Source of the DNA: Chromatiales bacterium 21-64-14
Lineage (GTDB): Bacteria; Pseudomonadota; Gammaproteobacteria; 21-64-14
NCBI GenBank assembly: GCA_002255365.1
Contig: NCBI01000006.1
Location: 18,742-82,741 of the forward strand
Length of the DNA stretch: 64,000 bases
Reading direction: 5' to 3'
Part shown: one piece after another, positions 29,008 to 59,772 of the stretch
Layout: the number at the start of each line of letters is the position of its first letter
Numbering within the stretch: position 1 is the first letter of the stretch
Notes under the pieces: model-generated
What the model was told of the DNA's origin: nothing
Database searches by the model: none
Seen by the model: only the letters and a program-made list of their open reading frames with translations
Program-made: the position numbers and the translations under genes

Positions 29008-29646
29008 GTGACTGTGATTACGAAAATGACAGGTCAAAAGATGGGGATTGGGGCCGCAACGAGCAACGACCCGCGGCCCAATGGCGACAAATATTCTACG
29101 TGCAGCAATCTCCCATTGCGGGTAGGCCGCAGAATCCGCGCGATTCAGTATCTTGTTGTTGGCCTATCCATCACGGTGGTCCAGCCGGCATGGTCCGCGG
29201 GACCTGATCTGAAGCCCGGGCTTTGGGAATATGCAACGTCCATCAAGGGGGCGGGTGTTGTTATGCCGGACCTGAGCAAACTGCCTCCGGAGCAGCGCGA
29301 GAAATTTCGCAAGGCGTTGATACAAATGGAAACTGAGCCGCGCAACATCGCGCTAAAAATTTGTTTGACCGAGGAGAAGATAAAGAGCATGGATTTCTCT
29401 GCGCGGAAAAAATCTCCCCACTGCACGCAAAGCGTGACGCAGGACGGGTCGGGGAAGTGGACCGAGACGTCGCATTGTGTGACGGACGGGCAGGCACAGG
29501 ATTCGGTTGTTAAAATTCATGTACTGAATCCCACCCATGTGACGAGTGCCGGTCAGGTTACCGTCACACGGGGCGCGCAGGTCCATAAATCGGAATTTCG
29601 TCAGGATGGTAAATGGGTGAGTGCCGATTGCGGCGGCGTGAAATAA
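29008..29646 (+). CDS. hypothetical secreted protein (possibly DUF3617-like)
   Basis: Hydrophobic signal-like segment AIQYLVVGLSITVVQPAWSAGP then PGLWE motif; Cys-containing C-terminal domain; low GC. Confidence 0.35.
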   Translation: MTVITKMTGQKMGIGAATSNDPRPNGDKYSTCSNLPLRVGRRIRAIQYLVVGLSITVVQPAWSAGPDLKPGLWEYATSIKGAGVVMPDLSKLPPEQREKFRKALIQMETEPRNIALKICLTEEKIKSMDFSARKKSPHCTQSVTQDGSGKWTETSHCVTDGQAQDSVVKIHVLNPTHVTSAGQVTVTRGAQVHKSEFRQDGKWVSADCGGVK

Positions 29647-30042: not shown

Positions 30043-30118
<76 letters not shown>

Positions 30119-30182: not shown

Positions 30183-30908
30183 CTAGCGGCGGCGGCGCTG
30201 GAGCAGTCTGCGCTCGAGTTCGGCCACGAACCGTTCCAGGCACTTCTGCTGGGCGCGGGTCAGGTCGAGAAACCGCCCACCGATGCGCAGTTTGCCCCGT
30301 GCCTCGTCGAATCGCACATAGCACACCTCCAGCGCGCTGCGCAGCGGAGGGGCGTCCGGGAGTTGGACCACGCAGGCCGGGACGGTATCGCCCCGTTGCA
30401 GGGTGCCGCTGGCGAGATAGGCGCCGACTCCGCTCACCGACAGATCATGCAACGAGCCATCCAGGAGTTGCTCGGGGCCGAGGGCAAGCTGAACTGGGAT
30501 CACCAAGGACGCGCCGACTTCCACCCGGTAATGGGTGCGCCGCTGGCGATAGCGGACCAGGCCGGGTATGGCCAACTGATAGTAGGCGATGCCCGCGGCG
30601 CCGCCGATCTCCTGCACCGCCGCGGGAAAGCGGATCTCGATGCCGTGCAGCCGGCCGATGACCTGCAGCTTGCGCGCTTCCAACAGGCGCTCATGACCGC
30701 GGCGCGGGTTCAGTTCGTCCAGCAGCAGGTGGCCCAGATCGGGATCCACCTCTAGCAGGGCACTGCTGTAGAGGGATTGTTCGCCGGGGATCGAGACGGA
30801 GAGCAGGGCGTGACTGTCCATCAGGCCGCGGAGCAGGGCCACGATCCGGGTAGGGTCGGTAACGTTCTCTTCGGCCCCGAATGGGTCTTGCCGGGATTGG
30901 TTTTCCAT
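30183..30908 (-). CDS. flgZ: flagellar brake protein YcgR/FlgZ-like (PilZN + PilZ domains)
   Basis: YcgR-type N-terminus (IVALLRGLMDSHALLSV), C-terminal PilZ RxxxR-like region, and position downstream of flgMN as in Pseudomonas FlgZ; start ATG 30908. Confidence 0.7.
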   Translation of the reverse strand: MENQSRQDPFGAEENVTDPTRIVALLRGLMDSHALLSVSIPGEQSLYSSALLEVDPDLGHLLLDELNPRRGHERLLEARKLQVIGRLHGIEIRFPAAVQEIGGAAGIAYYQLAIPGLVRYRQRRTHYRVEVGASLVIPVQLALGPEQLLDGSLHDLSVSGVGAYLASGTLQRGDTVPACVVQLPDAPPLRSALEVCYVRFDEARGKLRIGGRFLDLTRAQQKCLERFVAELERRLLQRRRR

Positions 30909-31013
30909 GTGCTCAGGGGGTGTTTCCCCGCGCCGCACAAGGCGGCTCGGTCGCTGTGACTGGAGCATCGTGATGCGCCTCCCTGCGCCGGTTCATCGGG
31001 TGCCGCCGTCGGC

Positions 31014-31493
31014 TCAGGCCTTGGCGATGCTGCGCCGCTGGTTGTGGCCCAGCGGTTTGCCTTTGGGTCCGTACCCGGATCCTCCCGGGAGTTGGCCGCG
31101 CAGGATATCCAGCGCTTGCTGGATCCGTATCCGGCTCATCTCGAGGATCCCGCCGTTGCGCCGATTCCGGTCCCGGCATGCCCGCACCTGGGTCAGTAAC
31201 TCTTCCCACTTTGCGCTGAGGACTCCGTCCGGATCGTTGGCGTGGAGGAATGCCGTCATCCCCGGGTTTCCTGGCGCGTAGCCGGCGGACGCCAAGAGTT
31301 GGAGCCGCCGGCGCTCCCAATCCTCGAGTTGTTCCAGATGCTGTTGTTTGTCGACTGTCAGGGTTTCCACCGTGGTGGGGTCCACCTGCGTGAGGGCGTT
31401 TTGTTCCTGGTCCAGCAACGCGTTCAAGCGGCTGGCCGCTTCCAACTGTTCTTGGAGCAGGCGAGCGAGAGCGCCGTAGATCGCGGAACTCAT
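31014..31493 (-). CDS. flgN: flagellar export chaperone FlgN
   Basis: FlgN-family helical protein (LLDQEQNALTQ...); located after flgM. Confidence 0.65.
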   Translation of the reverse strand: MSSAIYGALARLLQEQLEAASRLNALLDQEQNALTQVDPTTVETLTVDKQQHLEQLEDWERRRLQLLASAGYAPGNPGMTAFLHANDPDGVLSAKWEELLTQVRACRDRNRRNGGILEMSRIRIQQALDILRGQLPGGSGYGPKGKPLGHNQRRSIAKA

Positions 31494-31825
31494 GGTCTAC
31501 CGGGTGCTGGGAGTTGCGCGTCGAGCCGGATCAGCCGGTCGGCGATTCGGGGTGGGTCTGGCACGAAGGTGCCGTTGGCAATGGTTTGGCGGACCGCGCC
31601 CACCCGCTGTGCATCGACGATGGGGACCGAGGCTAAAGCCGCGTGCAGTTGCTGCAGGTGTTCGGCCGCGGCGGTGAGGTGCACCGTATCGGAATTTGTA
31701 GCGGTCCCCTGCTGCGTACCGTGGTTCGTGCCGCGCGCGCCGGGGGTGGCACCGTTGGTCCGACCGCCTTTGTCCACGTGGCCGTGGCCCAGATTCGCCA
31801 AATTGTTGACGTCTTTGATATCCAT
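31490..31825 (-). CDS. flgM: anti-sigma-28 factor FlgM
   Basis: C-terminal VDAQRVGAVRQTIANGTF...IADRLI matches the FlgM sigma-28-binding region; sigma-28 promoter upstream. Confidence 0.65.
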   Translation of the reverse strand: MDIKDVNNLANLGHGHVDKGGRTNGATPGARGTNHGTQQGTATNSDTVHLTAAAEHLQQLHAALASVPIVDAQRVGAVRQTIANGTFVPDPPRIADRLIRLDAQLPAPGRP

Positions 31826-31866: not shown

Positions 31867-31897
31867 TATGACGGCCGGGGTGGGGCAAACTTTAAAG
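31867..31897 (-). promoter_or_regulatory. sigma-28 (FliA) promoter upstream of flgM
   Basis: Minus-strand TTTAAAGTTT-N11-GCCGTCAT between the flgA stop and flgM start. Confidence 0.5.
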
Positions 31898-31945: not shown

Positions 31946-32650
31946 TCACAGTGGGACCCGGACGACACCCGTGGCCACGACGGTGCCTTCCACCACGCGT
32001 TTGGAAGAGAGGTTGCGTACCTTGATATCCGCGCCGTTGGCGCCGTCCGCCAAGGCTGTGCCGGCCATGCGTACTTCCAAGCCGCCCACTCCTGCCACGA
32101 GGGTGACCTGTTGGCCACGGCGCACGAGGGGCGGAAACGCGAGGGTGTTGGGGGTGAGGGCGGCGCCTGCGGGGATGAGGCGGAGCGCCCGTTTACCCAA
32201 TGCGGTCTTGGGGTTTGTGAGGTATCCGTAGGCCAAGCCGTTCAGGTCGCGGCGCGCCAAGCGGAAGTCGTCGCTGGTCAGTGTGGTGCCCCGGGTGAGG
32301 GCACGTGCCGCTACCAGGACTTTTCCGTATAGGGCGACCTGCGCCGGCACATAGAGGGTCCAGGGGTGCGCTCCGGTGCAGCGGATGCCCACGGCCGTGT
32401 TCCCCAACGCCCTGCCGCCCGGCGGCAGGAAAGTCTGCAGCGCCACGGGACACTTGGGCAACCGCAGCCGCGGGTCGAGGGCGTCCACTTTCACTTGCAG
32501 CTCGCCCACGGTGGATCGGGCATGCTGGGCGCGCAGAAACCGGGCCGCGGCGTCCCGGATACTGGCGGTGGACTGCAGTTCCGCAGCCGGCACCGTCGGT
32601 GCGATGGCCAGTAAGGCGATTGAGAGTGCGACACCGGCGAATCGGATCAC
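31946..32650 (-). CDS. flgA: flagellar basal-body P-ring formation chaperone FlgA
   Basis: Signal peptide; SAF-like C-terminal domain (GQQVTLV...[16 protein letters not shown]). Confidence 0.75.
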
Positions 32651-34008
32651 GATGGGGTGTCCTCCGCGGGATTGGCCCGCAGCAGTTGGTGGATGCCACT
32701 GAACACGGTGTCCAGGGCGCTGTCCATCTCACCCATCTGCGCGCGCGCGGCGTCGAGGTTACCGGACGCCAGCCGACCTGCGATCTCCGCACCGCACTCG
32801 TGGAGTTGGCGGTGGGAGGCAACCAAGCCGCGGAATGCCGGATGCACGCCGTAACGCTGTTGGCCCCGATTGGCCAGCCACCGGCCCAGGCGGCATTCCT
32901 GATGGCCCTTGACGCCCTCTGGTGACACGGGCTCGTTTTTACGCAATGCCTCGTCCAGGGTGAGTTTCCACATCAGGTGTCCGCCCTTCACCCCGCACAA
33001 CAGGATCCGGTCGTCTTCAGAGTCGGCAAAGGCGTTGAGCTGGCGCGCGCCGGCCGCCGCGACGATCCGCGCGTGGTCAGCAAGCAAGCCGATCCGGCGG
33101 TTCTCTTCCTCCAGCTCGCTGGTGATCTCGCTCAGGGTGCGTGCCATGCTATGGGAGACCTGCTGCTGGTCGCCGGCGGCCACGGCGATCTGGTGGGCAC
33201 GCTCGGTAACGTCGTTCACCACCGCATGGATATCCGATAACGCTACCACCACGGTTTCCAGGGATTCGCCGCTGGTGGAGAGCCGCTGCAGGCCGGTTTG
33301 CACCGATGCCGTGGCGGTGCGCGACAACTCGTTCATGGTGGCCGTGACGGATTCGATTTCGGTAGTCGCCTGGGCGGTCTTGTCGGCGAGCTGCTTGACC
33401 TCGCCGGCGACTACTGCAAAGCCGCGGCCCGCTTCACCGGCCCGGGCTGCTTCGATAGCGGCGTTCAGGGCCAGGAGGTTGGTTTGGTGAGCGATGTCCT
33501 TGACGATGGCAGTGAGCTTGTCGATCTGCTGGGTGAACCCGGCCAACTGTTCCATGCTGTCGGCCATGGTGCGGACCGCCCCTTCCAGCAGGTCCAGTTC
33601 CCCCACCAGGGTGGAGGCGCAAACGTTGCCTTCCCGGACTTTGCCGCTGCCCTCACCGGCGCGCTCCGCCGTCTGGCCGGCGTGGGTGGAGATGGACTCC
33701 GCCGTCGCGGCCATCTCCTCTACCGCCGCGGCCACCCCGGTCACCTGATCCTTGAGGTCGGCGAGCCCATGATGAAAGGTCCCGGTTCCTTCCATGAGCC
33801 CGGTCGACTGTTCCATGAGTTCCATCCCCTCCCGCGCGATCCGGTAGAGCTTATCGTTCCAGTCCAGCAGGGCGGTGGTGACCGGCTCCAGAGCCGCACC
33901 GGTGGCGCGATGACGCTGTCGAGATTCGGCCACCCGTTGGCGGTCTGCGGCGAGCGCCGCGTTCAGCACTTCGAGGACATGCCGGGTGATGAGCAGGGCT
34001 TGCGTCAC
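32647..34008 (-). CDS. soluble methyl-accepting chemotaxis protein with C-terminal CZB (chemoreceptor zinc-binding) domain
   Basis: MCP signalling tip [34 protein letters not shown]; no TM segments; C-terminal CZB motif [11 protein letters not shown] with flanking His; 4-nt overlap with flgA. Confidence 0.75.
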
Positions 34009-34145
34009 GGTGTCTCCTTGGGCCAGAACGGTCGCGGTTTGGACGCCGCTCAGATTCGGGGTTCTGGGCTTTCAGCGGCGCCGAATCACCCGACCTTTAA
34101 TCAAGGTTGAGTAAATGCATATTCCATGCCGTCACGGCGTACCAG

Positions 34146-34172
34146 TAAAGGAATTAAAGACCGCGCCGATAC
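34146..34172 (+). promoter_or_regulatory. sigma-28 (FliA) promoter upstream of cheV-cheR
   Basis: TAAAGGAA-N11-GCCGATAC, near-perfect to TAAAGTTT-N11-GCCGATAA, ~30 nt upstream of cheV. Confidence 0.55.
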
Positions 34173-34201: not shown

Positions 34202-35149
34202 GTGGCGAGCATCCTGGATAGCGTCGACCAGCGGACCCAACTCGCGGGGCGCAACCGGCTCGAACTGCTGTTGTTCCGCTTAGGCGGCAAACAGCGATTC
34301 GGAATCAACGTGTTCAAGGTTCAGGAGGTGTTGCCCTGTCCGGTGATGACCCGTTTGCCGAAGTCCCATCCGGTGGTCAGCGGTGTGGCTCATGTACGCG
34401 GCAGGACCTTTCCGGTATTGGACCTGGCTCTCGCCATCGGCGCCGGCCCGTTGACGACGACGGAGCCCCGCTTCGTCGTGATAACGGAATACAACCGGTC
34501 GGTACAGGGTTTTCTGGTCAGTGCTGTGGACCGCATCGTCAATCTGCGCTGGGAAGACGTACGGCCGCCACCGCGCGGGGCCGGTGGGGAGGCGAGCTTC
34601 CTGACGGCGGTGACCCAGGTGGATGAGGATCTGGTCGAGATCATCGACGTGGAGCGGGTGTTGACCGACGTGGTTGGTGTGCCGGCTCCGGTTTCCGCCC
34701 TGATGGCAGAGGCGCCCCGGGACGTGGCGGTGACCCAGGCCCATGTGCTGGCCGTGGACGATTCCCTCGTGGCGCGTCGGCAGATTCGTCGCACGCTGGA
34801 GCAGATCGGCGTAGAATGCACCCTCGCTGATAACGGTCGGCTCGCGCTCGAACTGCTCCGCGGGTGGGCGGATGCGCAGGACCCGCGTTTCCAGCGTACG
34901 GTGATGGTGGTGTCCGACATCGAGATGCCGGAGATGGACGGGTATACCCTGACAACGGAATTGCGTAGCGATCCGCGCCTGCAGCATCTTTACGTGCTGC
35001 TCCATACTTCTCTGAGTGGTGTATTCAACAGCGCCATGGTGGAGAAGGTGGGTGCCAACCGCTTCCTGGCCAAATTCCAACCCGACGAATTGGCTGACGT
35101 AGTGTTGAACCGGATTCATGACGCCAGTGCCCGGGACTCCGCCGCCTGA
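34202..35149 (+). CDS. cheV: chemotaxis protein CheV (CheW-like + receiver domain)
   Basis: CheW-like N-terminal domain; C-terminal receiver (LAVDDS...VSDIEMPEMDG). Confidence 0.85.
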   Translation: MASILDSVDQRTQLAGRNRLELLLFRLGGKQRFGINVFKVQEVLPCPVMTRLPKSHPVVSGVAHVRGRTFPVLDLALAIGAGPLTTTEPRFVVITEYNRSVQGFLVSAVDRIVNLRWEDVRPPPRGAGGEASFLTAVTQVDEDLVEIIDVERVLTDVVGVPAPVSALMAEAPRDVAVTQAHVLAVDDSLVARRQIRRTLEQIGVECTLADNGRLALELLRGWADAQDPRFQRTVMVVSDIEMPEMDGYTLTTELRSDPRLQHLYVLLHTSLSGVFNSAMVEKVGANRFLAKFQPDELADVVLNRIHDASARDSAA

Positions 35150-35261
35150 TCCCGACGACCGCGGAACCTGATCGCGGTCACCGCGGTGCGTGGCGGCCCC
35201 CCGGCGCCGTAGCGCGGCCGCCGCGCTTGGATACCCCGTCGCAGCGTGACGTCTACCCTCG

Positions 35262-36176
35262 ATGGAAAGCGGTCCCAGCCACGATAATAGGCACGCAACA
35301 GGCTTCGTGTCAGGGATCGAAGACTTGAACGATACCGGCCTCACCGAGACGGAATACGAGGACTTCCGAGCGTTTCTGGAGGAATCCTGCGGCATCGCGC
35401 TGGGAGACCAAAAGCAATATCTGTTGACCACGCGCCTGCGGCCGTTGCTGGAGGAGTTCCGGTACGGATCCGTGGGCGAGTTGCTGGGGCATTTGCGCAA
35501 GGGGCTCGGGCTTGGGCTGCGGGAGCGGGTGGTCGATGCCATGACCACCAACGAGACCTACTGGTTCCGGGACGGACATCCCTATGAGATCCTCGCCAAT
35601 ACCATTCTGCCGGAGCTGGACAAGCGTCCCGGCGTGATGCCGCGGCTCTGGTCTGCCGCTTGTTCGTCGGGCCAGGAGCCCTATTCCATCAGTATCGTGA
35701 TTCAGGAGTACCTGCGCGCCCGTCCCGGCGCATTTCCATCCGGGGTGCAGGTGGTCGGGACGGATATTTCTCCCACCATGCTCAAGAAGGCCCGTTCCGG
35801 GCTCTACCATGAGAGCGACCTTGCCCGGGGATTACCGGCCGAGCAGCGTGACCGGTATTTCAAGCGCCGGGGATTCGGCTCGGAGATCAATCCGGAGATC
35901 CGGGCGCGGGTCCGGTTCATGGACCTGAACCTGCTCAAGCCCTATACCCTCATGGGCAATTTCGACGTGATCTTCTGTCGCAACGTGTTGATCTATTTCT
36001 CGGCGCAGTCCCGCCGTGACATCCTGGAACGCATGATCCGGGTGCTGAATCCCGGGGGCTACATGGTCATGGGCGCGTCTGAATCCCTGGCCAACCATGC
36101 CTCATCGTTTCAGATGGTGCGCGTCGGCGGGGGTATCGTCTACCGGCTGAAGGACCCGTCCCGTCCCCTGCGCTGA
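35262..36176 (+). CDS. cheR: chemotaxis protein methyltransferase CheR
   Basis: CheR N-terminal helical domain plus SAM-binding domain (RLWSAACSSGQEPYSI, FCRNVLIYF). Confidence 0.8.
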   Translation: MESGPSHDNRHATGFVSGIEDLNDTGLTETEYEDFRAFLEESCGIALGDQKQYLLTTRLRPLLEEFRYGSVGELLGHLRKGLGLGLRERVVDAMTTNETYWFRDGHPYEILANTILPELDKRPGVMPRLWSAACSSGQEPYSISIVIQEYLRARPGAFPSGVQVVGTDISPTMLKKARSGLYHESDLARGLPAEQRDRYFKRRGFGSEINPEIRARVRFMDLNLLKPYTLMGNFDVIFCRNVLIYFSAQSRRDILERMIRVLNPGGYMVMGASESLANHASSFQMVRVGGGIVYRLKDPSRPLR

Positions 36177-36298: not shown

Positions 36299-36314
36299 TG
36301 GCACGGGCATTGCT
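36299..36314 (+). promoter_or_regulatory. sigma-54 promoter upstream of flgB (TGGCAC-N5-TTGCT)
   Basis: Exact -24/-12 consensus TTGGCACGGGCATTGCTT ~30 nt upstream of the flgB ATG. Confidence 0.6.
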
Positions 36315-46847: not shown

Positions 46848-46863
46848 TGGTACGAAGCTTGCA
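46848..46863 (+). promoter_or_regulatory. candidate sigma-54 promoter (TGGTAC-N5-TTGCA) upstream of the giant gene
   Basis: GG-N10-GC spacing correct; one mismatch to the -24 consensus; ~260 nt leader. Confidence 0.35.
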
Positions 46864-47122
46864 TCTTGCATTGAGTCTCATGCGAGCTGCTGCGTGGCTC
46901 GCCGTTCTCCTCGGCGAAGGGATGCGACCGTGACGGCAGAACACGGAAATACGAGCCCGGCCGGTCCGAATGCCTGCCGTATACCCGCACGTCAGCCAGC
47001 GCCGGTGCCCATGCGCCGCGTGGTCACCGAGTTGCGGCCAGATTGCGCCTGGCCTGGCCGGTGGTCGGAATCCCTTAGTGGCGCTCGCGCCTGTCTCGCG
47101 CCAAACACGTGGGTCCCAAACA

Positions 47123-50100
47123 ATGGATGCGGATGAATTGTTGATCGCTTGTGTGGCGGAAGACCGTCGTGATCACCACATCAAGGTCGCGAATCTGGTC
47201 GGTACGATCAGGTCTTTCGGCGGGAGTTTAGCGAGCGCTCGAATCGCGGTTAATTACGTCGAGTCTGTCGATTCCGGAATCCGCGCATCGCTCGAGGAAG
47301 CGGGTGCCGATGTGAGGGTCGTGCCGCGGTTTGATCCGCGCTGTCCGCATGCCAACAAGCTTCGTATGTTGGAACAGGTGGCAGGTGTGGGCCTGCTCGT
47401 CGCCATGGATGTCGATATGGCTGTGGTTAGGGACTTCCGCTCACAACTCCACACGGGTGGGATAAGCGCCAAGATCGTCGATCTTAATCCCTTGAGTGAG
47501 ACGCAGTGGCACCAGCTTTTTGACTACGCAGGGCTGCCGATGCCCGGGCAGCGATACGTATGTAGTTCCGATGGTGGCGTGGTCCCCCCGTATTTCAATA
47601 GTGGCCTGCTTACCATTCCAGTGCAGTGGATATCGTCCCTGCGCGCGAGCTGGGGTGCATACGTGGCATGGCTGCTCGACGCCAGAATGGACCTGCCTTG
47701 GCTTGAACAGCACGCGTTCTTTACCGACCAACTGGCACTCGCCCTCGCACTGCAGGCGATCCAGTGCCCGGTAATACCACTGCCGATTGAAATGAACTTC
47801 CCAACCCATATACCAGTGGCACCCAACTTCCATCCGGACGATGTAGAGCCATATATAGTTCACTACCATGACCGCGTGAATGCGGACGGAACCTTGGGTC
47901 TTACGGCTTACCGTGCACCCAATCTGGGGATCAAGCGGGTAAACGAATCGATTATAGGCAACATAACCCTCGGCGATGCCGGTACAGCATCGGACCGATT
48001 CAGTAATTCGGTGTTCTGGGAAAAACATTATCGAGACGCGCCTGATCTCGGTTCCGGGGTCGGATCGCGGGCGCAGTTTGCGCGGTATAAGAGCGTGATT
48101 ATTGACCAGCTCACGCAGGAAATGGGGCCTGCCAGTGTGTTGGATGTGGGTTGTGGTGATCTCGCATCAGTCGCGGGCCGACCATGGCCCGAATATACCG
48201 GAATTGACATAGCAGGATGCGTAATAGAGCGCAATCGAACGGCATTTCCGCATTGGAAGTTTCTCCCCGGCGATTTTCTGGAGTTATCTGAGAGTGCTGA
48301 CATCGACGCGGATTTGGTGCTGTGCTTTGACGTCCTGATCCATGAGCATGACCCAATCCGATATGAACAAATTGTTGGGAAATTGCTTCGATCGACAGGC
48401 CGCTGCCTGATGATCGGAGGGTACGACTCCCCCCCATTGCAACGGTACTCCAGTGGGATTAACGCGTTTCATGAACCGCTGTCGGATACCCTTCGCCGCT
48501 ACGGCGTGACTCGAATTGTACGGATTGGTGGCTACCGGGGGGTGACCATGCTGCGGGTAGACCTCGACGATGGGTTGGTCACTCCGCAGCGTAGGCGTAG
48601 TGAAAAAGACGACGATCGGGGGTTCGCGATATTGCGCAGCGGCACGCGGGATGACACGACGCCGGACCGGCCGCAGGAATCCAGTATTACCTCGGGCGTG
48701 GCGAAGGTTTCCTCAGCGCACATGAGTCCGGAACCGGTAGCTGAAGGTGAATCCCCTGAGGTTGGGGATATGCCACAAGCCATCCTCATTGTCGGGATGC
48801 ATCGCAGTGGAACGTCAGCGCTGGCGCGGGTGTTGAACCTGCACGGTGTCCGTCTCGGATCCCGGATGATCCCCCCTCAGGACGATAATGCGCGCGGGTT
48901 CTGGGAGCATCCCGCTGTCATGGCGCTAAATGAACGTGTGTTGGCGTATTTCGGAGGAGCATGGGATCGTCCTGGTCCACTGAGGAATGATGGCCAGAGT
49001 CTGGAGGAGTTCACGGCACTGTTGAACGATGCAGCGACATTAGTGGACGGCGAGTTCTCGGCTACGAAGCTTTGGGGCATCAAGGACCCGCGCTTGTGCC
49101 GTACGCTCCCGTTTTGGCACCGCGTGCTGGAGCGCGCGCGGACTGAGTCGCGGCACGTTCTTGTCATCCGTAACCCGCTGGAAATCGCTGCCTCCTTGGC
49201 GAAGCGAGATGGGTTCTCGCAGACGAGGTCACTTCTGCTCTGGTTCAGATATCTTTTGGACGCCGAGCACGACAGCCGTGGCACCAAGCGCGTCTTTATT
49301 ACCTACGAGCAATTACTCGGTGATTGGAGAAGCGCGATTCGGCATCTTGCCTCCGGTCTTGGAGTCGTCCTGGATCCGGAGACGGAAACCGTCGCGCGTC
49401 GCGTGGAGGCCTTCCTTTCTCCGCAGCTGCGGCATCACCACATGAGGCGACCGCCCACGGTCCAAGACCACGCCCGGTTGGGCCCGCTGGCCGCCGAGTT
49501 CTATGATGCCTTACTCGCAGCGTCACACGGTGATGAAAGTGGACTCGCTGACCTGGATCGGTTGCGGTCGGATATTGAACTTCTGGAGCAGGATTTTAAC
49601 CATAAGAATGCAGCTCCCGAATCCACATCGGGCGCAATACGGAGCATGGTAGAGCCGGAGGCAATCCTTCGCCAGTTGGGCCGGCCGTTACGCGTCGGGA
49701 TCCTTTCTACCGAGAGGAAGGAATGGGGGTGCGCGCACATTCGTCTAGTCAGCCCATTGGCATCTCTCCAGAAGCAGGTGGAGGTCATCTGGGCGGTCCC
49801 TGAAGCGGACGCAACCGCGAGGATCGATTTCGAGCTGCTCGATTCCGCCGATTTGTTTGTTGTCCAAAGGTTCTTCCCATCCGCGGTCAACATGGAGTTG
49901 ATCCGGCTGTTGTTGTCTTCGGGAAAGCCGGTGATCTACGAGGCCGACGACCTCGTAACGGCGATTCCGGAGGCTAACCCTGGGTACGCCGTGGCAGCGG
50001 CAATGCGGCCGTATATTCTGGAAACGGTGACGTCCGTGCATGCGCTGACGGTTTCGACGGAAGAGCTGCGGCGGGCTTTTGCGTCGTACAACAGCAATAT

Positions 50101-53100
50101 TTATATTTTGCCAAACCTGCTGGATGACCGTTTGTGGAATCGGGAGCCGGTCGACGGGAGCGCCGTAGTCGTGATCGGCTATGTCGGCACCTGGACCCAC
50201 CTGGATGACTTGGAAATCATCGAGCCGGCACTCGAAATCATTGCGAAAATATATGGTAGCCGCGTACGGTTCGAATTCGCTGGCTGCATCTCAGAGCGTC
50301 TGAGGGGGCTGCCCAATCTGACGGTGCGAGAGTTTCAGCCGGGCTACGCTGCTTATGCACAGACCCTGCAGGGCCTTGGCGTTGACATCGCGGTGGCGCC
50401 GCTTCGTGATACCGCGTTCAACCGGGTAAAGAGCAATATTAAATGGCTGGAATATTCCGCCTGCGGGATCGCGGGTGTCTACTCAGCAGTTCCGCCCTAT
50501 GTTGCGGACGTGGTGCATGGGGAAACGGGTTTGCTGGCAGGGGAGGATGTGGATGAATGGGTCAATGCGATCGCGAGTTTGGTGGAAAGCCGGGACCGGC
50601 GATTGGCGATCGCTGGTAAGGCGCGGGAACGGGTGTTGGCCGACTACACGGCGAGCCGTGGCGCCCGATCCTACCTTCAGGCCTATGTGGACGTGCTTGC
50701 TAACTTCCAAACCAGACCAAATCGCATGCCGCAGATATCGGCTGAGTACGAGCTTTGGCGGGAGCGCCGTTCCCACAGGGTAGCGACGAGGTTGGACGGG
50801 CTCCGCGATGCGCCCGCCATTCATCTCATCGTCTGCCTCCACGAGGGACAGGAGGCGGCGCTAGCCGATACCGTTGATACGCTCGCCGCGCAGACCTACG
50901 GTGGATGGGGCCTTAGTGTTGTCGCGGATTTTCCATGCCGACAGCCGGACTTCGAGGCGCTGCCGATGTGCGAATGGGTAGCGTCCGACGGCGAGTTCCA
51001 GGATACGGTAAATCAGCTTGTGGCCACTTCGCAGGCTGATTGGTTGGCGCAGATCGATGTCGGAGACCGCTTCGATGCGTCCTTGCTTGCCAGCTTGGCG
51101 CACTACTTGGCTCTGTTCGGCGATTGGCGGGTGGTTTATGTGGATGAAGATGTATGGTTGGCGGACGGGCGCCGTGTCGCCCCTAAATTCAAGCCGGATT
51201 TCAACTTAGATTTGCTTCGTTCTACACCCTATGTAGGCGCCCTCTGTTTCGTGCGCAGGGATGTGTTGGTCGCGATCGGAGGATTTTCGGGCGGGGATGG
51301 CCTAAGCCGAACGTATGATACCGTGCTGCGAGTGCTGGAACATTCGGGGGAAAAGTCGGTCGGTCATGTGCCAGATTTACTTTTCCACCGCAGTGGCGGC
51401 AATGCTGCCGCAGTGGATTTCGCCGCCTCACACGGTGTATGTCGAAGACATCTGGAAGCGCATCTGCAGCGTTGTGGCGTGCACGCGGTTGTTCATCAGG
51501 GTCGTGCCGAGGGTACCCAGTTTATCGAGTATCCAGTGGGCGAACACTGCCGCGTGTCTGTGGTGATCCCCACCGATGGACGTTTGCGGTTTCTTGAGCC
51601 ATGTATCCGGACGGTACTTTCCAACACGGAGTACCCGGACCTCGAAGTCGTCGTGGTGACCGGAACGGAACAGGATCCTAGCCTGGGCCAGTGCCTGTAC
51701 GAACTAATGGCTTGCGACAACCGGGTGCGTGTGGTTTCGAGCGGCGGAGAAAATGGGGTTACGGCGGCTCTGGACGCGGGGGTCCGGGAGGCGTCAGGAG
51801 AATATGTGCTGCTGTTGCACGACGACACATTGATAGTCCAGAAGGACTGGTTGAGCCGGATGGTATCCCTCGCCAAGCGCGACGACGTTGGTGTCGTAGG
51901 GGTAAGGCTGGTGTTCCCTGACCAGCGGATACAGAACTCGGGGATCATCCTGGGCGGCGGCCCCTGGGGCGTTGCGGAGTGCCGGGATGTTGGGAAAACG
52001 CTGACGGACCCAGGGTACCTGGGGCGTCTTGCCTGCGTCCAGGACCTTTCCGCGGTTAGCGGGGCTTGTCTGATGATCCGCGCTGAACTGTACCGACAGG
52101 TCATGGCGACCGAGATGGCGGCGGCGGGACATTTCTGGGATGTGGCCTTGTGTCTGCGAGTGGGTAGGTTGGGGTACAAGGTGGTGTGGACCCCGTACGT
52201 GACGGTGGTCCACCATCATACATCCGTGCGTGAGGCGTGTGATGCTGATCGGCACGGGATCGAGCGGGACGCGGCGCGGATGCGGGCACAGTGGCTGGGA
52301 CGACTTGCGAGTGACCCGGCCTATAACCGCAATCTTTCGCTCACGGGTGGGGGTTGGCGCCCGGATGTAAACCTTTTTTGTCCGTGGGATCCGGCACTCC
52401 GTGAGGACCACCGGATCGTCGGGGTCGGGGCCGGCTCCTACGGATCCTGGCGCTATCGCCTCGCGGATCCCCTGGCGGGCCTCGAGGGCGCAGGGCGTGC
52501 CCGCCCGATGGTCGTCGAGTATTACAGTGAGACAGCGCCCATGCCTACGGTGACGGAGCTCGCGCGGTTAGGGCCCGATACCCTCTTCATGCACAACGCT
52601 GTTCACGATTCGCAGATTGCCCTCATCAAGGAGTACAGGGAACTCCGCCAGGGATTCGTGGTGTTCGGGCAGGACGACCTGATGTTCGAGCTTCCCGGGA
52701 AAAATCCCTTCCAGAAAACCGTGTTCAAGGACATCAAGCGCCGGCTGCGGACCTGTATTGGTTTGGCGGACCGCTTGGTCGTGACGACGGAACCGTTGGC
52801 AGAGGCCTACCGGGAGTGGGCCCAGGATGTGCGGATCGTGCCGAACTATCTCGAACGCTCGGTCTGGGGCGCACTTCGGTCAGAACGCCGGACCGCGCGG
52901 CGACCCCGGGTTGGCTGGGCGGGGGCAATGCAGCACGGTGGGGATCTGGAGCTCCTGATCGAGGTAGTGAAAGAAACCGCGGGTGAATTGGATTGGGTGT
53001 TCTTTGGGATGTGTCTGGAGGAACTGCGGCCATTGGCGGCAGAACTGTGCCCGGCGGTGGCTTTTGACGACTATCCCAAGGTGCTGGCACGGCTGAACCT

Positions 53101-53446
53101 GGACTTGGCTGTCGCTCCTCTGGCGCGCAACCGTTTCAACGAGGCCAAGAGCAATCTACGGATCTTGGAGTACGGGGCGTTGGGGTGGCCGGTGGTGTGC
53201 AGCGATATCCAACCCTACCGGGATGCGCCGGTATGTCGCGTGCCTAACAACTCGCGGGCGTGGATCGAGGCGATCCGGGAGCGCGCCCACGACCTGGACG
53301 CGGCGGCGGTGGAGGGAGACCGGTTGCGGGACTGGGTCCTGAGGGATTGGATGCTTGAGGATCACCTGGAGCAATGGCTGGAGGCGCTGGTTTGTCCCGG
53401 GGCGGCGGTGGGCGGGGCGGACATTCAGGCACACGGAGGTGGCTGA
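47123..53446 (+). CDS. giant multidomain protein: DxD domain + class I SAM-methyltransferase + sulfotransferase + GT-B-like + two GT2 + second GT-B-like domain (candidate flagellin glycan synthesis/modification enzyme)
   Basis: Single 2158-codon ORF (46970..53446); likely start ATG 47123. VLDVGCGDL (MTase motif I) ~48.1 kb; GMHRSGTS (PAPS 5'-PSB) ~48.8 kb; GT2 DxD/VVIPT regions ~50.8-52.2 kb; repeated AVAPL..N..KSN...LEY.A.G motif at ~50.4 and ~53.1 kb. Lies between flgL and fliC where Pseudomonas carries its flagellin glycosylation island. Confidence 0.7.
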   Translation: MDADELLIACVAEDRRDHHIKVANLVGTIRSFGGSLASARIAVNYVESVDSGIRASLEEAGADVRVVPRFDPRCPHANKLRMLEQVAGVGLLVAMDVDMAVVRDFRSQLHTGGISAKIVDLNPLSETQWHQLFDYAGLPMPGQRYVCSSDGGVVPPYFNSGLLTIPVQWISSLRASWGAYVAWLLDARMDLPWLEQHAFFTDQLALALALQAIQCPVIPLPIEMNFPTHIPVAPNFHPDDVEPYIVHYHDRVNADGTLGLTAYRAPNLGIKRVNESIIGNITLGDAGTASDRFSNSVFWEKHYRDAPDLGSGVGSRAQFARYKSVIIDQLTQEMGPASVLDVGCGDLASVAGRPWPEYTGIDIAGCVIERNRTAFPHWKFLPGDFLELSESADIDADLVLCFDVLIHEHDPIRYEQIVGKLLRSTGRCLMIGGYDSPPLQRYSSGINAFHEPLSDTLRRYGVTRIVRIGGYRGVTMLRVDLDDGLVTPQRRRSEKDDDRGFAILRSGTRDDTTPDRPQESSITSGVAKVSSAHMSPEPVAEGESPEVGDMPQAILIVGMHRSGTSALARVLNLHGVRLGSRMIPPQDDNARGFWEHPAVMALNERVLAYFGGAWDRPGPLRNDGQSLEEFTALLNDAATLVDGEFSATKLWGIKDPRLCRTLPFWHRVLERARTESRHVLVIRNPLEIAASLAKRDGFSQTRSLLLWFRYLLDAEHDSRGTKRVFITYEQLLGDWRSAIRHLASGLGVVLDPETETVARRVEAFLSPQLRHHHMRRPPTVQDHARLGPLAAEFYDALLAASHGDESGLADLDRLRSDIELLEQDFNHKNAAPESTSGAIRSMVEPEAILRQLGRPLRVGILSTERKEWGCAHIRLVSPLASLQKQVEVIWAVPEADATARIDFELLDSADLFVVQRFFPSAVNMELIRLLLSSGKPVIYEADDLVTAIPEANPGYAVAAAMRPYILETVTSVHALTVSTEELRRAFASYNSNIYILPNLLDDRLWNREPVDGSAVVVIGYVGTWTHLDDLEIIEPALEIIAKIYGSRVRFEFAGCISERLRGLPNLTVREFQPGYAAYAQTLQGLGVDIAVAPLRDTAFNRVKSNIKWLEYSACGIAGVYSAVPPYVADVVHGETGLLAGEDVDEWVNAIASLVESRDRRLAIAGKARERVLADYTASRGARSYLQAYVDVLANFQTRPNRMPQISAEYELWRERRSHRVATRLDGLRDAPAIHLIVCLHEGQEAALADTVDTLAAQTYGGWGLSVVADFPCRQPDFEALPMCEWVASDGEFQDTVNQLVATSQADWLAQIDVGDRFDASLLASLAHYLALFGDWRVVYVDEDVWLADGRRVAPKFKPDFNLDLLRSTPYVGALCFVRRDVLVAIGGFSGGDGLSRTYDTVLRVLEHSGEKSVGHVPDLLFHRSGGNAAAVDFAASHGVCRRHLEAHLQRCGVHAVVHQGRAEGTQFIEYPVGEHCRVSVVIPTDGRLRFLEPCIRTVLSNTEYPDLEVVVVTGTEQDPSLGQCLYELMACDNRVRVVSSGGENGVTAALDAGVREASGEYVLLLHDDTLIVQKDWLSRMVSLAKRDDVGVVGVRLVFPDQRIQNSGIILGGGPWGVAECRDVGKTLTDPGYLGRLACVQDLSAVSGACLMIRAELYRQVMATEMAAAGHFWDVALCLRVGRLGYKVVWTPYVTVVHHHTSVREACDADRHGIERDAARMRAQWLGRLASDPAYNRNLSLTGGGWRPDVNLFCPWDPALREDHRIVGVGAGSYGSWRYRLADPLAGLEGAGRARPMVVEYYSETAPMPTVTELARLGPDTLFMHNAVHDSQIALIKEYRELRQGFVVFGQDDLMFELPGKNPFQKTVFKDIKRRLRTCIGLADRLVVTTEPLAEAYREWAQDVRIVPNYLERSVWGALRSERRTARRPRVGWAGAMQHGGDLELLIEVVKETAGELDWVFFGMCLEELRPLAAELCPAVAFDDYPKVLARLNLDLAVAPLARNRFNEAKSNLRILEYGALGWPVVCSDIQPYRDAPVCRVPNNSRAWIEAIRERAHDLDAAAVEGDRLRDWVLRDWMLEDHLEQWLEALVCPGAAVGGADIQAHGGG

Positions 53447-59693: not shown

Positions 59694-59709
59694 CGGCATG
59701 GTTCTTGCT
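59694..59709 (+). promoter_or_regulatory. sigma-54 promoter upstream of fleSR (CGGCAT-N5-TTGCT)
   Basis: GG/GC dinucleotides at correct -24/-12 spacing. Confidence 0.45.
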
Positions 59710-59772
59710 GTCTTGTGACGGCAGGGGCCGGTTTGTTTGGCAGGTCCCTTGAGGCCGCCATCAGGAGCCGCA

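Follow-up and report, generated by a model that had tools for sequence, protein, structure and literature searches.

At the flagellar gene locus of Chromatiales bacterium 21-64-14, a gene for a soluble chemoreceptor directly precedes flgA. This raises the questions of what kind of receptor is encoded, what it would sense and whether its place before a P-ring chaperone gene carries meaning. The window (the whole 64-kb stretch of DNA that was analysed) was compared with a family sample of approximately 50 related metagenomic loci from uncultured organisms (38–100% identity, GC 38–76%). Coordinates of all features are listed in Table 1.

Table 1. Features of the receptor locus, with positions in the window.
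Feature	Position	Strand	Remarks
PilZN-PilZ gene (YcgR/FlgZ type), last of putative operon	30183..30968	-	Pfam PilZN + PilZ
flgN	31014..31493	-	Pfam FlgN
flgM (anti-sigma-28)	31490..31825	-	Pfam FlgM
Possible internal sigma28 promoter before flgM	31868..31894	-	3 mismatches; weak
flgA (P-ring chaperone, signal peptide), second cistron	31946..32650	-	Pfam ChapFlgA_N + SAF + ChapFlgA; TIGR03170
GTGA stop/start overlap, receptor gene/flgA	32647..32650	-	TGA 32647-32649, GTG 32648-32650
MCP-CZB receptor gene	32647..34008	-	453 aa; GTG start, TGA stop; ORF list
CZB four-helix bundle, residues 333-445 (Pfam core 344-409)	32674..33012	-	Pfam, NCBIfam, model
H403 codon, predicted zinc ligand	32800-32802	-	aligned to DgcZ H83
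H399 codon, predicted zinc ligand	32812-32814	-	aligned to DgcZ H79
C372 codon, predicted zinc ligand	32893-32895	-	aligned to DgcZ C52
H344 codon, predicted zinc ligand	32977-32979	-	aligned to DgcZ H22
Antiparallel coiled-coil signalling domain, ~residues 52-332	33013..33855	-	alignment + AF2 model
Hairpin tip, E192 codon	33433-33435	-	family alignment
Methylation consensus A93-A94-A-V-E97-E98-M-A-A101-T102	33703..33732	-	aligned to Tsr LEE site
Receptor N-terminal region, residues 1-51	33856..34008	-	three short helices (8-19, 23-32, 34-39)
Weaker sigma28-like site TAAAG-N15-GCCGCTGA	34072..34099	-	11/13; between sigma54 site and receptor start codon
Predicted sigma54 promoter CGGCATGGAATATGCA	34116..34131	-	9/12 to TGGCACG-N4-TTGCW; 107 nt upstream of receptor start
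Predicted sigma28 (FliA) promoter of cheV-cheR, TAAAG-N14-GCCGATAC	34146..34172	+	1 mismatch
cheV (CheW + Response_reg), divergent neighbour	34202..35149	+	Pfam
cheR (MCP methyltransferase), divergent	35262..36176	+	Pfam CheR_N + CheR

Receptor gene and signalling domain

The gene lies between flgA and cheV, as described in the earlier note; cheV is divergent, on the plus strand. A Shine-Dalgarno sequence (AGGAG) is located 5 nt upstream of the GTG start at 34008. The deposited protein with 100% identity to the receptor is annotated as hypothetical protein ('Chromatiales bacterium 21-64-14') and can be renamed as cytoplasmic CZB-type methyl-accepting chemotaxis protein. No second MCP or CZB copy was found within the window. 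Long opposite-strand ORFs, e.g. 34280-35551(-), were rejected as high-GC shadow ORFs.

The claim that this ORF encodes a soluble MCP was borne out: the highest Kyte-Doolittle value of any 19-residue window was 1.16, so the protein contains no transmembrane helix, and hidden ones were ruled out by the same maximum. In residues 1–51 no Pfam domain was found; this region is helical without strands and thus lacks the N-terminal PAS domain of TlpD. Residues T8, L12, L15 and A18 therein are conserved within the family. Protein length is very uniform among family members (445–455 aa).

Pfam MCPsignal (PF00015) was matched at residues 144–296 (E 5.2e-37, 127.8 bits versus a cutoff of 34.6), and the tip residues E186, E192, R195 and F197 were invariant in 45/45 family sequences, which confirms the canonical signalling tip recognised earlier. 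A full-length AF2 model was all-helical (pLDDT 88.5) with an unbroken helix from residue 41 to 325, and its best Foldseek matches were the MCP cytoplasmic domains 2ch7, 3zx6 and 1qu7. The signalling domain was aligned without gaps over 233 residues to P. putida PcaY (PcaY_PP, 6s18) and over 220 residues to CtpM (NF058645), and therefore falls into the same coiled-coil length class; alignments to Tsr and TM1143 contained 7-residue gaps. PcaY and the Pseudomonas F6 receptors are presumably of the 40H class. The coiled coil of approximately 280 residues would accordingly have 40H-type length, an assignment based on the ungapped PcaY alignment and not on a formal heptad count. Using the consensus [ASTG][ASTG]xx[EQ][EQ]xx[ASTG][ASTG], one clear methylation site was found in the receptor, with E97 and E/Q98 each present in 45/45 family sequences.

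CZB domain and zinc ligands

Pfam CZB (PF13682) was matched at residues 344–409 (E 2.1e-12, 47.7 bits versus a gathering score of 29.4), and the NCBIfam DgcZ model at residues 344–434 (E 6e-7). The motif quoted in the earlier note for a C-terminal CZB domain corresponds to residues 368–378, and its proposed 3His/1Cys site was recovered in the alignment to DgcZ. A model of the CZB domain alone (pLDDT 89.9, pTM 0.82) gave 3t9o_B and 3t9o_A as ranks 1 and 2 of 350,542 PDB chains (TM 0.58–0.66, at an E-value of only 0.03); model and match bore out the four-helix-bundle fold. By its sequence, the bundle would hold one Zn2+ through H344, C372, H399 and H403. The protein can be classed as a cytoplasmic chemotaxis receptor with a predicted zinc-binding sensor domain. 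This receptor type is already known, and the protein is an ordinary further member of the class of soluble chemoreceptors with C-terminal CZB.

In the search-derived family alignment (A1), which provides the unbiased ligand counts, H344, C372, H399 and H403 were kept in 43, 39, 40 and 40 of 44 members, respectively. The metagenome search pattern of the narrower alignment A4 contains HTQCR, so ligand conservation among the resulting loci L090–L137 is partly by construction. Missing ligands and unrecognised transmembrane helices, the two observations named beforehand as speaking against an MCP-CZB assignment, were both looked for in the receptor, and neither was found.

The motif C-R-L-G-x-W around C372 is conserved in the family, with the Arg placed directly after the Cys, a typical feature of soluble CZB chemoreceptors (PMC8262984). 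Conservation of C372 and its motif would also suit a direct sensor of HOCl or peroxide, in which the zinc-bound C372 thiolate is oxidised and no labile Zn2+ pool is read out. This mechanism was originally put forward for TlpD and DgcZ, and in both proteins the Cys was shown to be oxidised in an HOCl-dependent manner (PMC6715182, PMC8262984). Direct oxidant sensing is nevertheless unlikely here: according to source names, the family comes from mine drainage, sediment and vents, where neutrophil HOCl is irrelevant, and the study on McpA favours the Zn2+ pool as general signal and treats Cys oxidation as an exception limited to high HOCl (bioRxiv 10.64898/2026.07.03.735341).

In one sub-clade (P0031, P0034, P0060 and P0075), three of the four ligands (C372, H399 and H403) are lost and the gene still stands before flgA. 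Zinc sensing alone is therefore not the selective reason for this position, and the sub-clade represents a natural experiment on the contribution of the CZB domain. As full length and an intact tip are also retained there, and length is uniform in the whole family, the CZB domain might be mainly structural and the receptor a ligand-independent scaffold or baseline receptor, which nucleates or balances the array when the flagellum is built. We regard this as distinctly improbable: all four ligands are kept in ~90% of members across 38–100% identity, a sign that zinc binding is under purifying selection in most lineages.

Operon context and conservation of the flgA link

The 4-nt overlap with flgA was present as previously noted, and GGAGGA is located 9 nt upstream of the flgA GTG start. 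The order flgA-flgM-flgN-PilZ gene, divergent from cheV-cheR-flgB, was also found in loci L001, L002, L003 and L008. Between 29900 and 36400, no terminator-like site was found on the minus strand; together with the 4-nt overlap, this indirectly supports transcription of the putative operon as a single unit. An Rfam search of the same interval revealed no RNA element in the leader. The sole Rfam match in this interval was the tRNA.

Among informative family loci, flgA lies directly downstream of the receptor gene in 50 of 52. An ATGA or GTGA overlap was found in 36 of these 50, and the other 14 have spacings between -17 and +8 nt. In contrast, flgA adjacency was found in 0/104 control MCP loci (0/80 generic MCP, 0/24 more distant CZB-MCP); the generic controls were matches of a genome-contig search whose patterns were universal MCP hairpin peptides. 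The flgA link had been called unusual in the earlier note. This holds among MCPs generally, but the link is not peculiar to the 21-64-14 genome, as it is conserved in the orthologous family, where it persists through very large sequence and GC divergence.

Two family members, L105 and L107, have left the flgA site, so that the protein can exist elsewhere. The adjacency might accordingly be neutral, the result of a lineage-specific insertion that is expressed independently and whose overlap is devoid of regulatory meaning. Retention of the arrangement with gaps of at most 8 nt from 38 to 76% GC makes this very unlikely, as do the co-variation of MCP and FlgA identities to the window proteins (Spearman 0.80, n=39) and the finding that neither a terminator-like nor a sigma70-like site lies between receptor gene and flgA.

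A literature search for the link between a CZB receptor and flgA returned nothing relevant, nor does the link occur in the CZB-chemoreceptor papers cited here; a search for an Acidiferrobacter flagellar MCP likewise returned nothing relevant. A CZB receptor as first gene of the flgA operon across a group of uncultured sulfur-oxidiser-like bacteria therefore appears to be undescribed, and its conserved operon context is modestly interesting.

Predicted promoters

The 9/12 match of the window to the sigma54 consensus had a shuffle p of ~0.045. Of the high-GC orthologous loci, 15/15 have a sigma54 motif of at least 9/12 in sense orientation 52–113 nt upstream of the gene, whereas none has one on the antisense strand. 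In the low-GC half of the family no canonical GG-N10-GC motif was found; early-class expression may therefore not be general. The weaker sigma28-like site before the receptor gene is too weak for reliance, with comparable sites only in L001, L002, L102 and L115. Upstream of cheV, a sigma28 motif (11–13/13, at a distance of 25–50 nt) occurs in most high-GC orthologous loci. The predicted promoters would fit the Pseudomonas flgAMNZ/cheVR scheme, with sigma54 before the receptor gene and sigma28 before cheV.

In the earlier note the flgA link had also been connected to P-ring assembly. Operon membership stands, but no evidence was found for a functional tie, and the link is more plausibly explained by co-regulation within a Pseudomonas-type flgAMNZ operon. 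Alternatively, the receptor would not be a chemotaxis input at all, and would make flagellar assembly or the activity of sigma28 dependent on the zinc/redox state via its operon partners FlgA/FlgM. The conserved translational coupling to flgA would suit this, as would a predicted early-class sigma54 promoter, which is atypical of chemoreceptor genes. However, direct contact is implausible, as FlgA is periplasmic (signal peptide) and the receptor cytoplasmic; the CheA/CheW-binding tip is invariant and the methylation site conserved, and co-regulation suffices to explain operon membership, as in P. putida flgAMNZ (bioRxiv 10.1101/2021.08.29.457346). Such an assembly role is hardly credible.

Proposed function

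Most likely, the protein is a Zn2+/redox-taxis receptor whose gene is expressed within the flagellar regulon. Taken as a whole, a model is probable in which a homodimeric cytoplasmic MCP-CZB provides zinc/redox input to CheA and is encoded by the first cistron of a sigma54-dependent flgAMNZ-type operon. Its mechanism was drawn from studies of related proteins (PMC6715182, PMC8262984, bioRxiv 10.64898/2026.01.16.699579, 10.64898/2026.07.03.735341).

Each subunit of the dimer would consist of the short helical N-terminus, a long 40H-type hairpin and the C-terminal CZB bundle. Zinc occupancy of the CZB domain would change either with a labile Zn2+ pool that tracks external redox chemistry or by oxidation of the Cys thiolate, and, by analogy with TlpD, McpA and DgcZ, this change would be relayed through the coiled coil as far as the hairpin tip, which would control CheA through CheW/CheV. 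For adaptation, E97/E98 would be methylated by the neighbour-encoded CheR; genes for CheA, CheW and CheB are located beyond the window. The gene would stand first in a Pseudomonas-type flgA-flgM-flgN-flgZ operon, translationally coupled to flgA and transcribed from the predicted sigma54 promoter (FleQ-type), perhaps along with a sigma28 promoter in tandem. From this position and promoter it follows that the receptor would be made whenever the flagellum is built, and would give the cell an inherent zinc/redox-taxis input by default.

The large class of soluble CZB chemoreceptors, which was recently proposed to sense environmental redox potential through zinc availability, is known almost entirely from work on host-associated pathogens. 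In the present family, free-living chemolithotroph-like bacteria carry the same sensor as a fixed part of their flagellar regulon. If the coupling is functional, zinc/redox taxis would be core behaviour for these gradient organisms rather than an option.

A wider reading, which we offer as a speculation with a small chance of being right, is that in a gammaproteobacterial sulfur-/iron-oxidiser-like clade a zinc-sensing cytoplasmic receptor has become a permanent part of the early (sigma54) flagellar operon, translationally coupled to flgA, and forms an undescribed redox-taxis module linked to the flagellum. If so, each newly flagellated cell would carry one default receptor reading the labile Zn2+ pool. 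Because sulfide and oxygen chemistry determines this pool, the receptor would use it as a stand-in for the oxic-sulfidic interface, and expression timing would depart from the late (sigma28) pattern that chemoreceptor genes usually show. The clade spans from Acidiferrobacterales-like mine-drainage lineages to bacteria related to marine vent and tubeworm symbionts.

Comparison with known systems

The receptor had been likened to Helicobacter pylori TlpD. This is correct for the architecture class: both are soluble, with an MCP hairpin (MA domain) directly followed by a C-terminal CZB domain with a 3His/1Cys site, and the long-range coupling of zinc site to kinase-control tip is presumably the same. 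In detail the likeness fails. In TlpD a PAS domain occupies the N-terminus, the coiled coil has about half the length and methylation sites are missing, and H. pylori is devoid of CheR and CheB (bioRxiv 10.64898/2026.01.16.699579). The 21-64-14 receptor, in contrast, has no PAS domain, a ~280-residue coiled coil instead of a TlpD-type short MA domain (~178 residues, no methylation sites), a methylation consensus, an adjacent cheR and a place in the flgA operon. A TlpD orthologue was therefore rejected on account of missing PAS domain, long coiled coil and methylation consensus; the two proteins are also not orthologous because full-length relatives outside the family show at most 33% identity.

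Similar in N-terminal organisation, by published description, are Salmonella Typhimurium McpA and the extended-N-helix receptors of Vibrio/Aeromonas, which are likewise MCP-CZB proteins without PAS. Their N-terminal region is short or purely helical (bioRxiv 10.64898/2026.01.16.699579). McpA mediates taxis to the Zn2+ pool, ROS and O2 via the conserved Cys (bioRxiv 10.64898/2026.07.03.735341). For the sensor domain, the CZB of E. coli DgcZ (PDB 3t9o, 4h54) was the best match both by sequence (E 4.7e-4) and by structure (TM 0.58–0.66), and all four of its ligands align with those of the receptor. Unlike in DgcZ, the CZB domains of MCP-CZB proteins straddle the coiled coil (bioRxiv 10.64898/2026.01.16.699579). 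The Pseudomonas 40H receptors PcaY_PP and CtpM resemble it in coiled-coil length of the signalling domain, but are transmembrane proteins with periplasmic ligand-binding domains and HAMP, none of which is present here.

For the operon, the closest counterpart is P. putida, with a sigma54-dependent flgAMNZ operon and a FliA-dependent cheVR operon (bioRxiv 10.1101/2021.08.29.457346). Gene order, a sigma54 promoter heading the flgA operon and a FliA promoter before cheV are shared, the promoters being represented here by motifs. The 21-64-14 operon differs by an extra first cistron: an MCP-CZB gene located between the predicted sigma54 promoter and flgA, which it overlaps by 4 nt.

Receptor gene and flagellar neighbourhood

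A soluble chemoreceptor with an MCP domain and a C-terminal CZB domain, encoded between flgA and cheV and overlapping flgA by 4 nt, had been claimed in an earlier note on this DNA, and all of these features were borne out. Pfam placed the MCP signalling domain at residues 144-296 (E 5.2e-37) and the CZB domain at residues 344-409 (E 2.1e-12), both far over the curated thresholds. Residues 344-434 matched the NCBIfam model of DgcZ, an E. coli CZB protein, and the motif cited in the note corresponds to residues 368-378. The maximum 19-residue Kyte-Doolittle mean was 1.16 (a membrane helix needs well more), in agreement with the claimed lack of transmembrane segments.

The start codon is preceded by AGGAG (5 bases 5'). 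The TGA stop of the receptor gene and the GTG start of flgA share the tetranucleotide GTGA, and GGAGGA is located 9 bases 5' of the flgA start. The flgA product carries ChapFlgA_N, SAF and ChapFlgA domains and matches TIGR03170; flgM, flgN and a PilZN-PilZ gene follow. On the opposite strand, cheV and cheR start 193 bp from the receptor gene and are followed by flgB onward. No second MCP or CZB sequence was found within the window.

On its left side the flagellar cluster is bounded by a tRNA-Ala(CGC) directly downstream of the PilZN-PilZ gene, a fall in GC to 0.55 across 28-30 kb of the window, and a DUF3617 gene. Between flgL and fliC, a 2158-aa ORF with a sigma54-like site nearby combines glycosyltransferase family 2, glycosyltransferase family 1, methyltransferase and sulfotransferase domains (Pfam); it probably encodes a giant enzyme of several domains that modifies flagellin.

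Coordinates of features in the window and in related loci (L-numbers, metagenomic or contig loci)
Feature	Sequence	Position	Strand	Remark
MCP-CZB receptor gene	window	32647-34008	-	453-aa ORF, GTG start
Canonical sigma54 motif, exact match	window	36300-36314	+	directly upstream of flgB
Canonical sigma54 motif, one mismatch	window	59695-59709	+	directly upstream of gene at 59737, taken as fleS
DUF3617 gene	window	29008-29646		
tRNA-Ala(CGC)	window	30043-30118	-	
Sigma54-like site	window	46849-46863		near 2158-aa ORF
2158-aa ORF	window	46970-53446	+	
Ligand-less sub-clade gene	L008	6001-7347		
Ligand-less sub-clade gene	L009	4109-5455		
Relocated family member	L107	3026-4399		
Broken family copy	L105	2589-3969		
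Locus of CZB-MCP P0090 and divergent PilZ gene	L007	5063-5686		
PAS-PAS-MCP gene	L003	3098-4663		
Split flgA	L003	7360-8104		

Signalling domain and zinc ligands

In the full-length model (pLDDT 88.5) every element was helical: three short helices at the N-terminus, a single long hairpin spanning residues 41-325, and the helices of the CZB. The structural neighbours of the model were MCP cytoplasmic domains. The signalling domain aligned with Pseudomonas putida PcaY (6s18) over 233 residues with zero gaps and with a P. aeruginosa CtpM model over 220 residues without a gap, whereas alignments to Tsr and Thermotoga TM1143 required 7-residue gaps. With the tip at E192, each hairpin arm has ~140 residues, a length that would suit the 40H class found in F6 systems of the Pseudomonas type, to which the reference receptors belong. 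The tip was invariant across 44 aligned members of the family of full-length orthologues. The methylation consensus is matched by A93-T102, which aligned to the LEE site of Tsr.

In a search of PDB sequences, the C-terminal 125 residues matched best to the CZB domain of DgcZ (3t9o, E 4.7e-4). H344, C372, H399 and H403 fell on the DgcZ zinc ligands H22, C52, H79 and H83, so that the proposed 3His/1Cys set is present. An AlphaFold2 model of the CZB domain alone was a helical bundle (pLDDT 89.9), for which the two chains of 3t9o were the top two of 350,542 PDB chains (TM 0.58-0.66); the E-value was weak, which is unsurprising for a helical bundle this small.

The four ligands were retained in 43, 39, 40 and 40 of the 44 family members, respectively. 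C372, H399 and H403 were lost together in four sequences (P0031, P0034, P0060, P0075; C to G/D, H399 to R/L, H403 to Q), which no longer score as CZB in Pfam. Members of this sub-clade are still full-length, with the MCP tip retained and the gene directly upstream of flgA, which speaks against zinc sensing as the sole reason for keeping the gene there.

Conservation of the flgA linkage

Among 5.8 billion proteins searched, one is identical and is annotated as hypothetical in the MAG 'Chromatiales bacterium 21-64-14'. Another ~90 are full-length relatives (445-455 aa, 38-88% identity), all from metagenomes or MAGs; the few named ones are labelled Acidiferrobacterales or Gammaproteobacteria bacterium. 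Below this family, identity was 33% or less and domain contexts differed.

Six orthologue contigs (71, 51, 50, 46, 42 and 40% identity) all shared the gene order of the window, with cheR and cheV on one strand and the receptor gene, flgA, flgM and flgN on the other; in the high-GC members the PilZN-PilZ gene followed flgN. A metagenome scan seeded by the family CZB region added 65 further loci. Of 55 family loci examined by tblastn with window proteins, 52 were long enough to be informative. flgA lay immediately downstream in 50 of the 52, with an ATGA or GTGA stop/start overlap in 36 and a spacing between -17 and +8 nt in the remaining 14. The exceptions were L107, where an intact member has moved to a site flanked by rapA and LigT/LysR genes, and L105, where the copy is broken and a 4HB-HAMP MCP comes next.

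As controls, flgA was found within the flanks of 0/80 generic MCP loci from GTDB genomes and of 0/24 more distant CZB-MCP loci. The nearest protein outside the family, the 33%-identical CZB-MCP P0090, is not encoded beside flgA; its gene is divergent from a stand-alone PilZ gene.

Family loci spanned 38 to 76% GC and formed a high-GC group, including the window, and a low-GC group, whose housekeeping protein Era shared 90% identity with the Era of a sulfur-oxidising tubeworm endosymbiont. Receptor and FlgA identity to the window co-varied (Spearman 0.80, n=39), as expected for joint vertical descent. From the conserved context, the controls and this co-variation, the linkage is real, old and maintained.

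Local variants were also observed. In L003 an extra PAS-PAS-MCP gene is inserted between cheV and cheR, and flgA is split in two ORFs by a frameshift or assembly error. The two highest-GC loci (L102 and L115, 0.72-0.76) are without cheV and have cheR as divergent neighbour of the receptor gene.

Predicted promoters

In the 193-bp divergent region, a sigma28-type site with 1 mismatch from consensus lies 29 nt upstream of cheV. On the receptor strand, a sigma54-type site (CGGCATGGAATATGCA) with only a 9/12 match lies 107 nt upstream of the start. A sense-strand sigma54 element (mostly 10-12/12, 52-113 nt upstream) was present in 15/15 high-GC loci, with perfect 12/12 motifs in L102 and L115, and none was found on the antisense strand of these 15 loci. 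In the window and four other loci, a weaker sigma28-like site follows the sigma54 site, ahead of the start codon. From the receptor gene to the PilZ gene, no site resembling a terminator or a sigma70 promoter was found on the minus strand. The predicted sigma54 sites before flgB and the putative fleS are consistent with a FleQ/FleR-type flagellar hierarchy.

No canonical sigma54 motif was found in the low-GC group. These loci (L004, L006, L109-L136) carry a strongly conserved ~45-nt block (GATATTAGTCTATATAnAGTGAAGnGCTAGTAAATAACGnTAAAC) some 40-90 nt before the receptor ATG, and many have a TGGCAC box further upstream whose -12 region is degenerate. The block could have a regulatory role, as a promoter of sigma28-like type or otherwise. 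Promoter class thus varies within the family, and flgA coupling is uniform.

Proposed function and comparison with known systems

The receptor has every sequence feature needed for the CZB zinc/redox mechanism. We infer a cytoplasmic zinc/redox-taxis receptor that would feed the flagellar chemotaxis pathway, would be made together with the flagellum by virtue of its gene's position in the predicted flgA operon, and may adapt through the putative methylation site and the neighbouring CheR. The interpretation in the earlier note holds with refinements. No support was found for a functional tie to P-ring assembly itself: FlgA acts as a chaperone in the periplasm, to which it is secreted, and co-regulation is enough to account for the receptor gene's place in the operon.

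DgcZ is controlled by zinc and by C52 oxidation (PMC8262984). In a system reconstituted with CheW and CheA, Helicobacter pylori TlpD responds to HOCl via the CZB cysteine (PMC6715182). In TlpD crystal structures two CZBs straddle the coiled coil, and small zinc-site changes are transmitted as far as the tip that controls the kinase (bioRxiv 10.64898/2026.01.16.699579). In Salmonella, McpA mediates attraction to oxidants, O2 and zinc-depleted buffer, which prompted the proposal that the labile Zn2+ pool is what CZBs read and that it stands in for external redox potential (bioRxiv 10.64898/2026.07.03.735341).

Seven CZB architectures have been catalogued; one of them, the soluble chemoreceptor with a C-terminal CZB, accounts for about half of all CZB proteins and typically has Arg after Cys (PMC8262984; bioRxiv 10.64898/2026.01.16.699579). 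The window protein belongs to this class. It is not a TlpD orthologue: the window receptor is without PAS, its coiled coil is ~100 residues longer, and, unlike TlpD, it carries a predicted methylation site and has CheR encoded nearby, which would allow adaptation. McpA and the Vibrio/Aeromonas proteins with an extended N-terminal helix, likewise PAS-less, are closer in plan.

The CZB studies cited here are silent on gene context, a full-text literature search for CZB with flgA returned nothing relevant, and the conserved first-cistron position seems undescribed. The protein would be no surprise to a chemotaxis specialist, who might be mildly surprised by the strict flgA coupling across divergent genomes; the operon context is a modestly interesting conserved variation. 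Experiments in P. putida have defined a flgAMNZ operon that depends on sigma54/FleQ and, divergent from it, a cheVR operon that depends on FliA (bioRxiv 10.1101/2021.08.29.457346). The predicted promoter scheme of the window matches this arrangement, but differs by the receptor gene inserted as first cistron.
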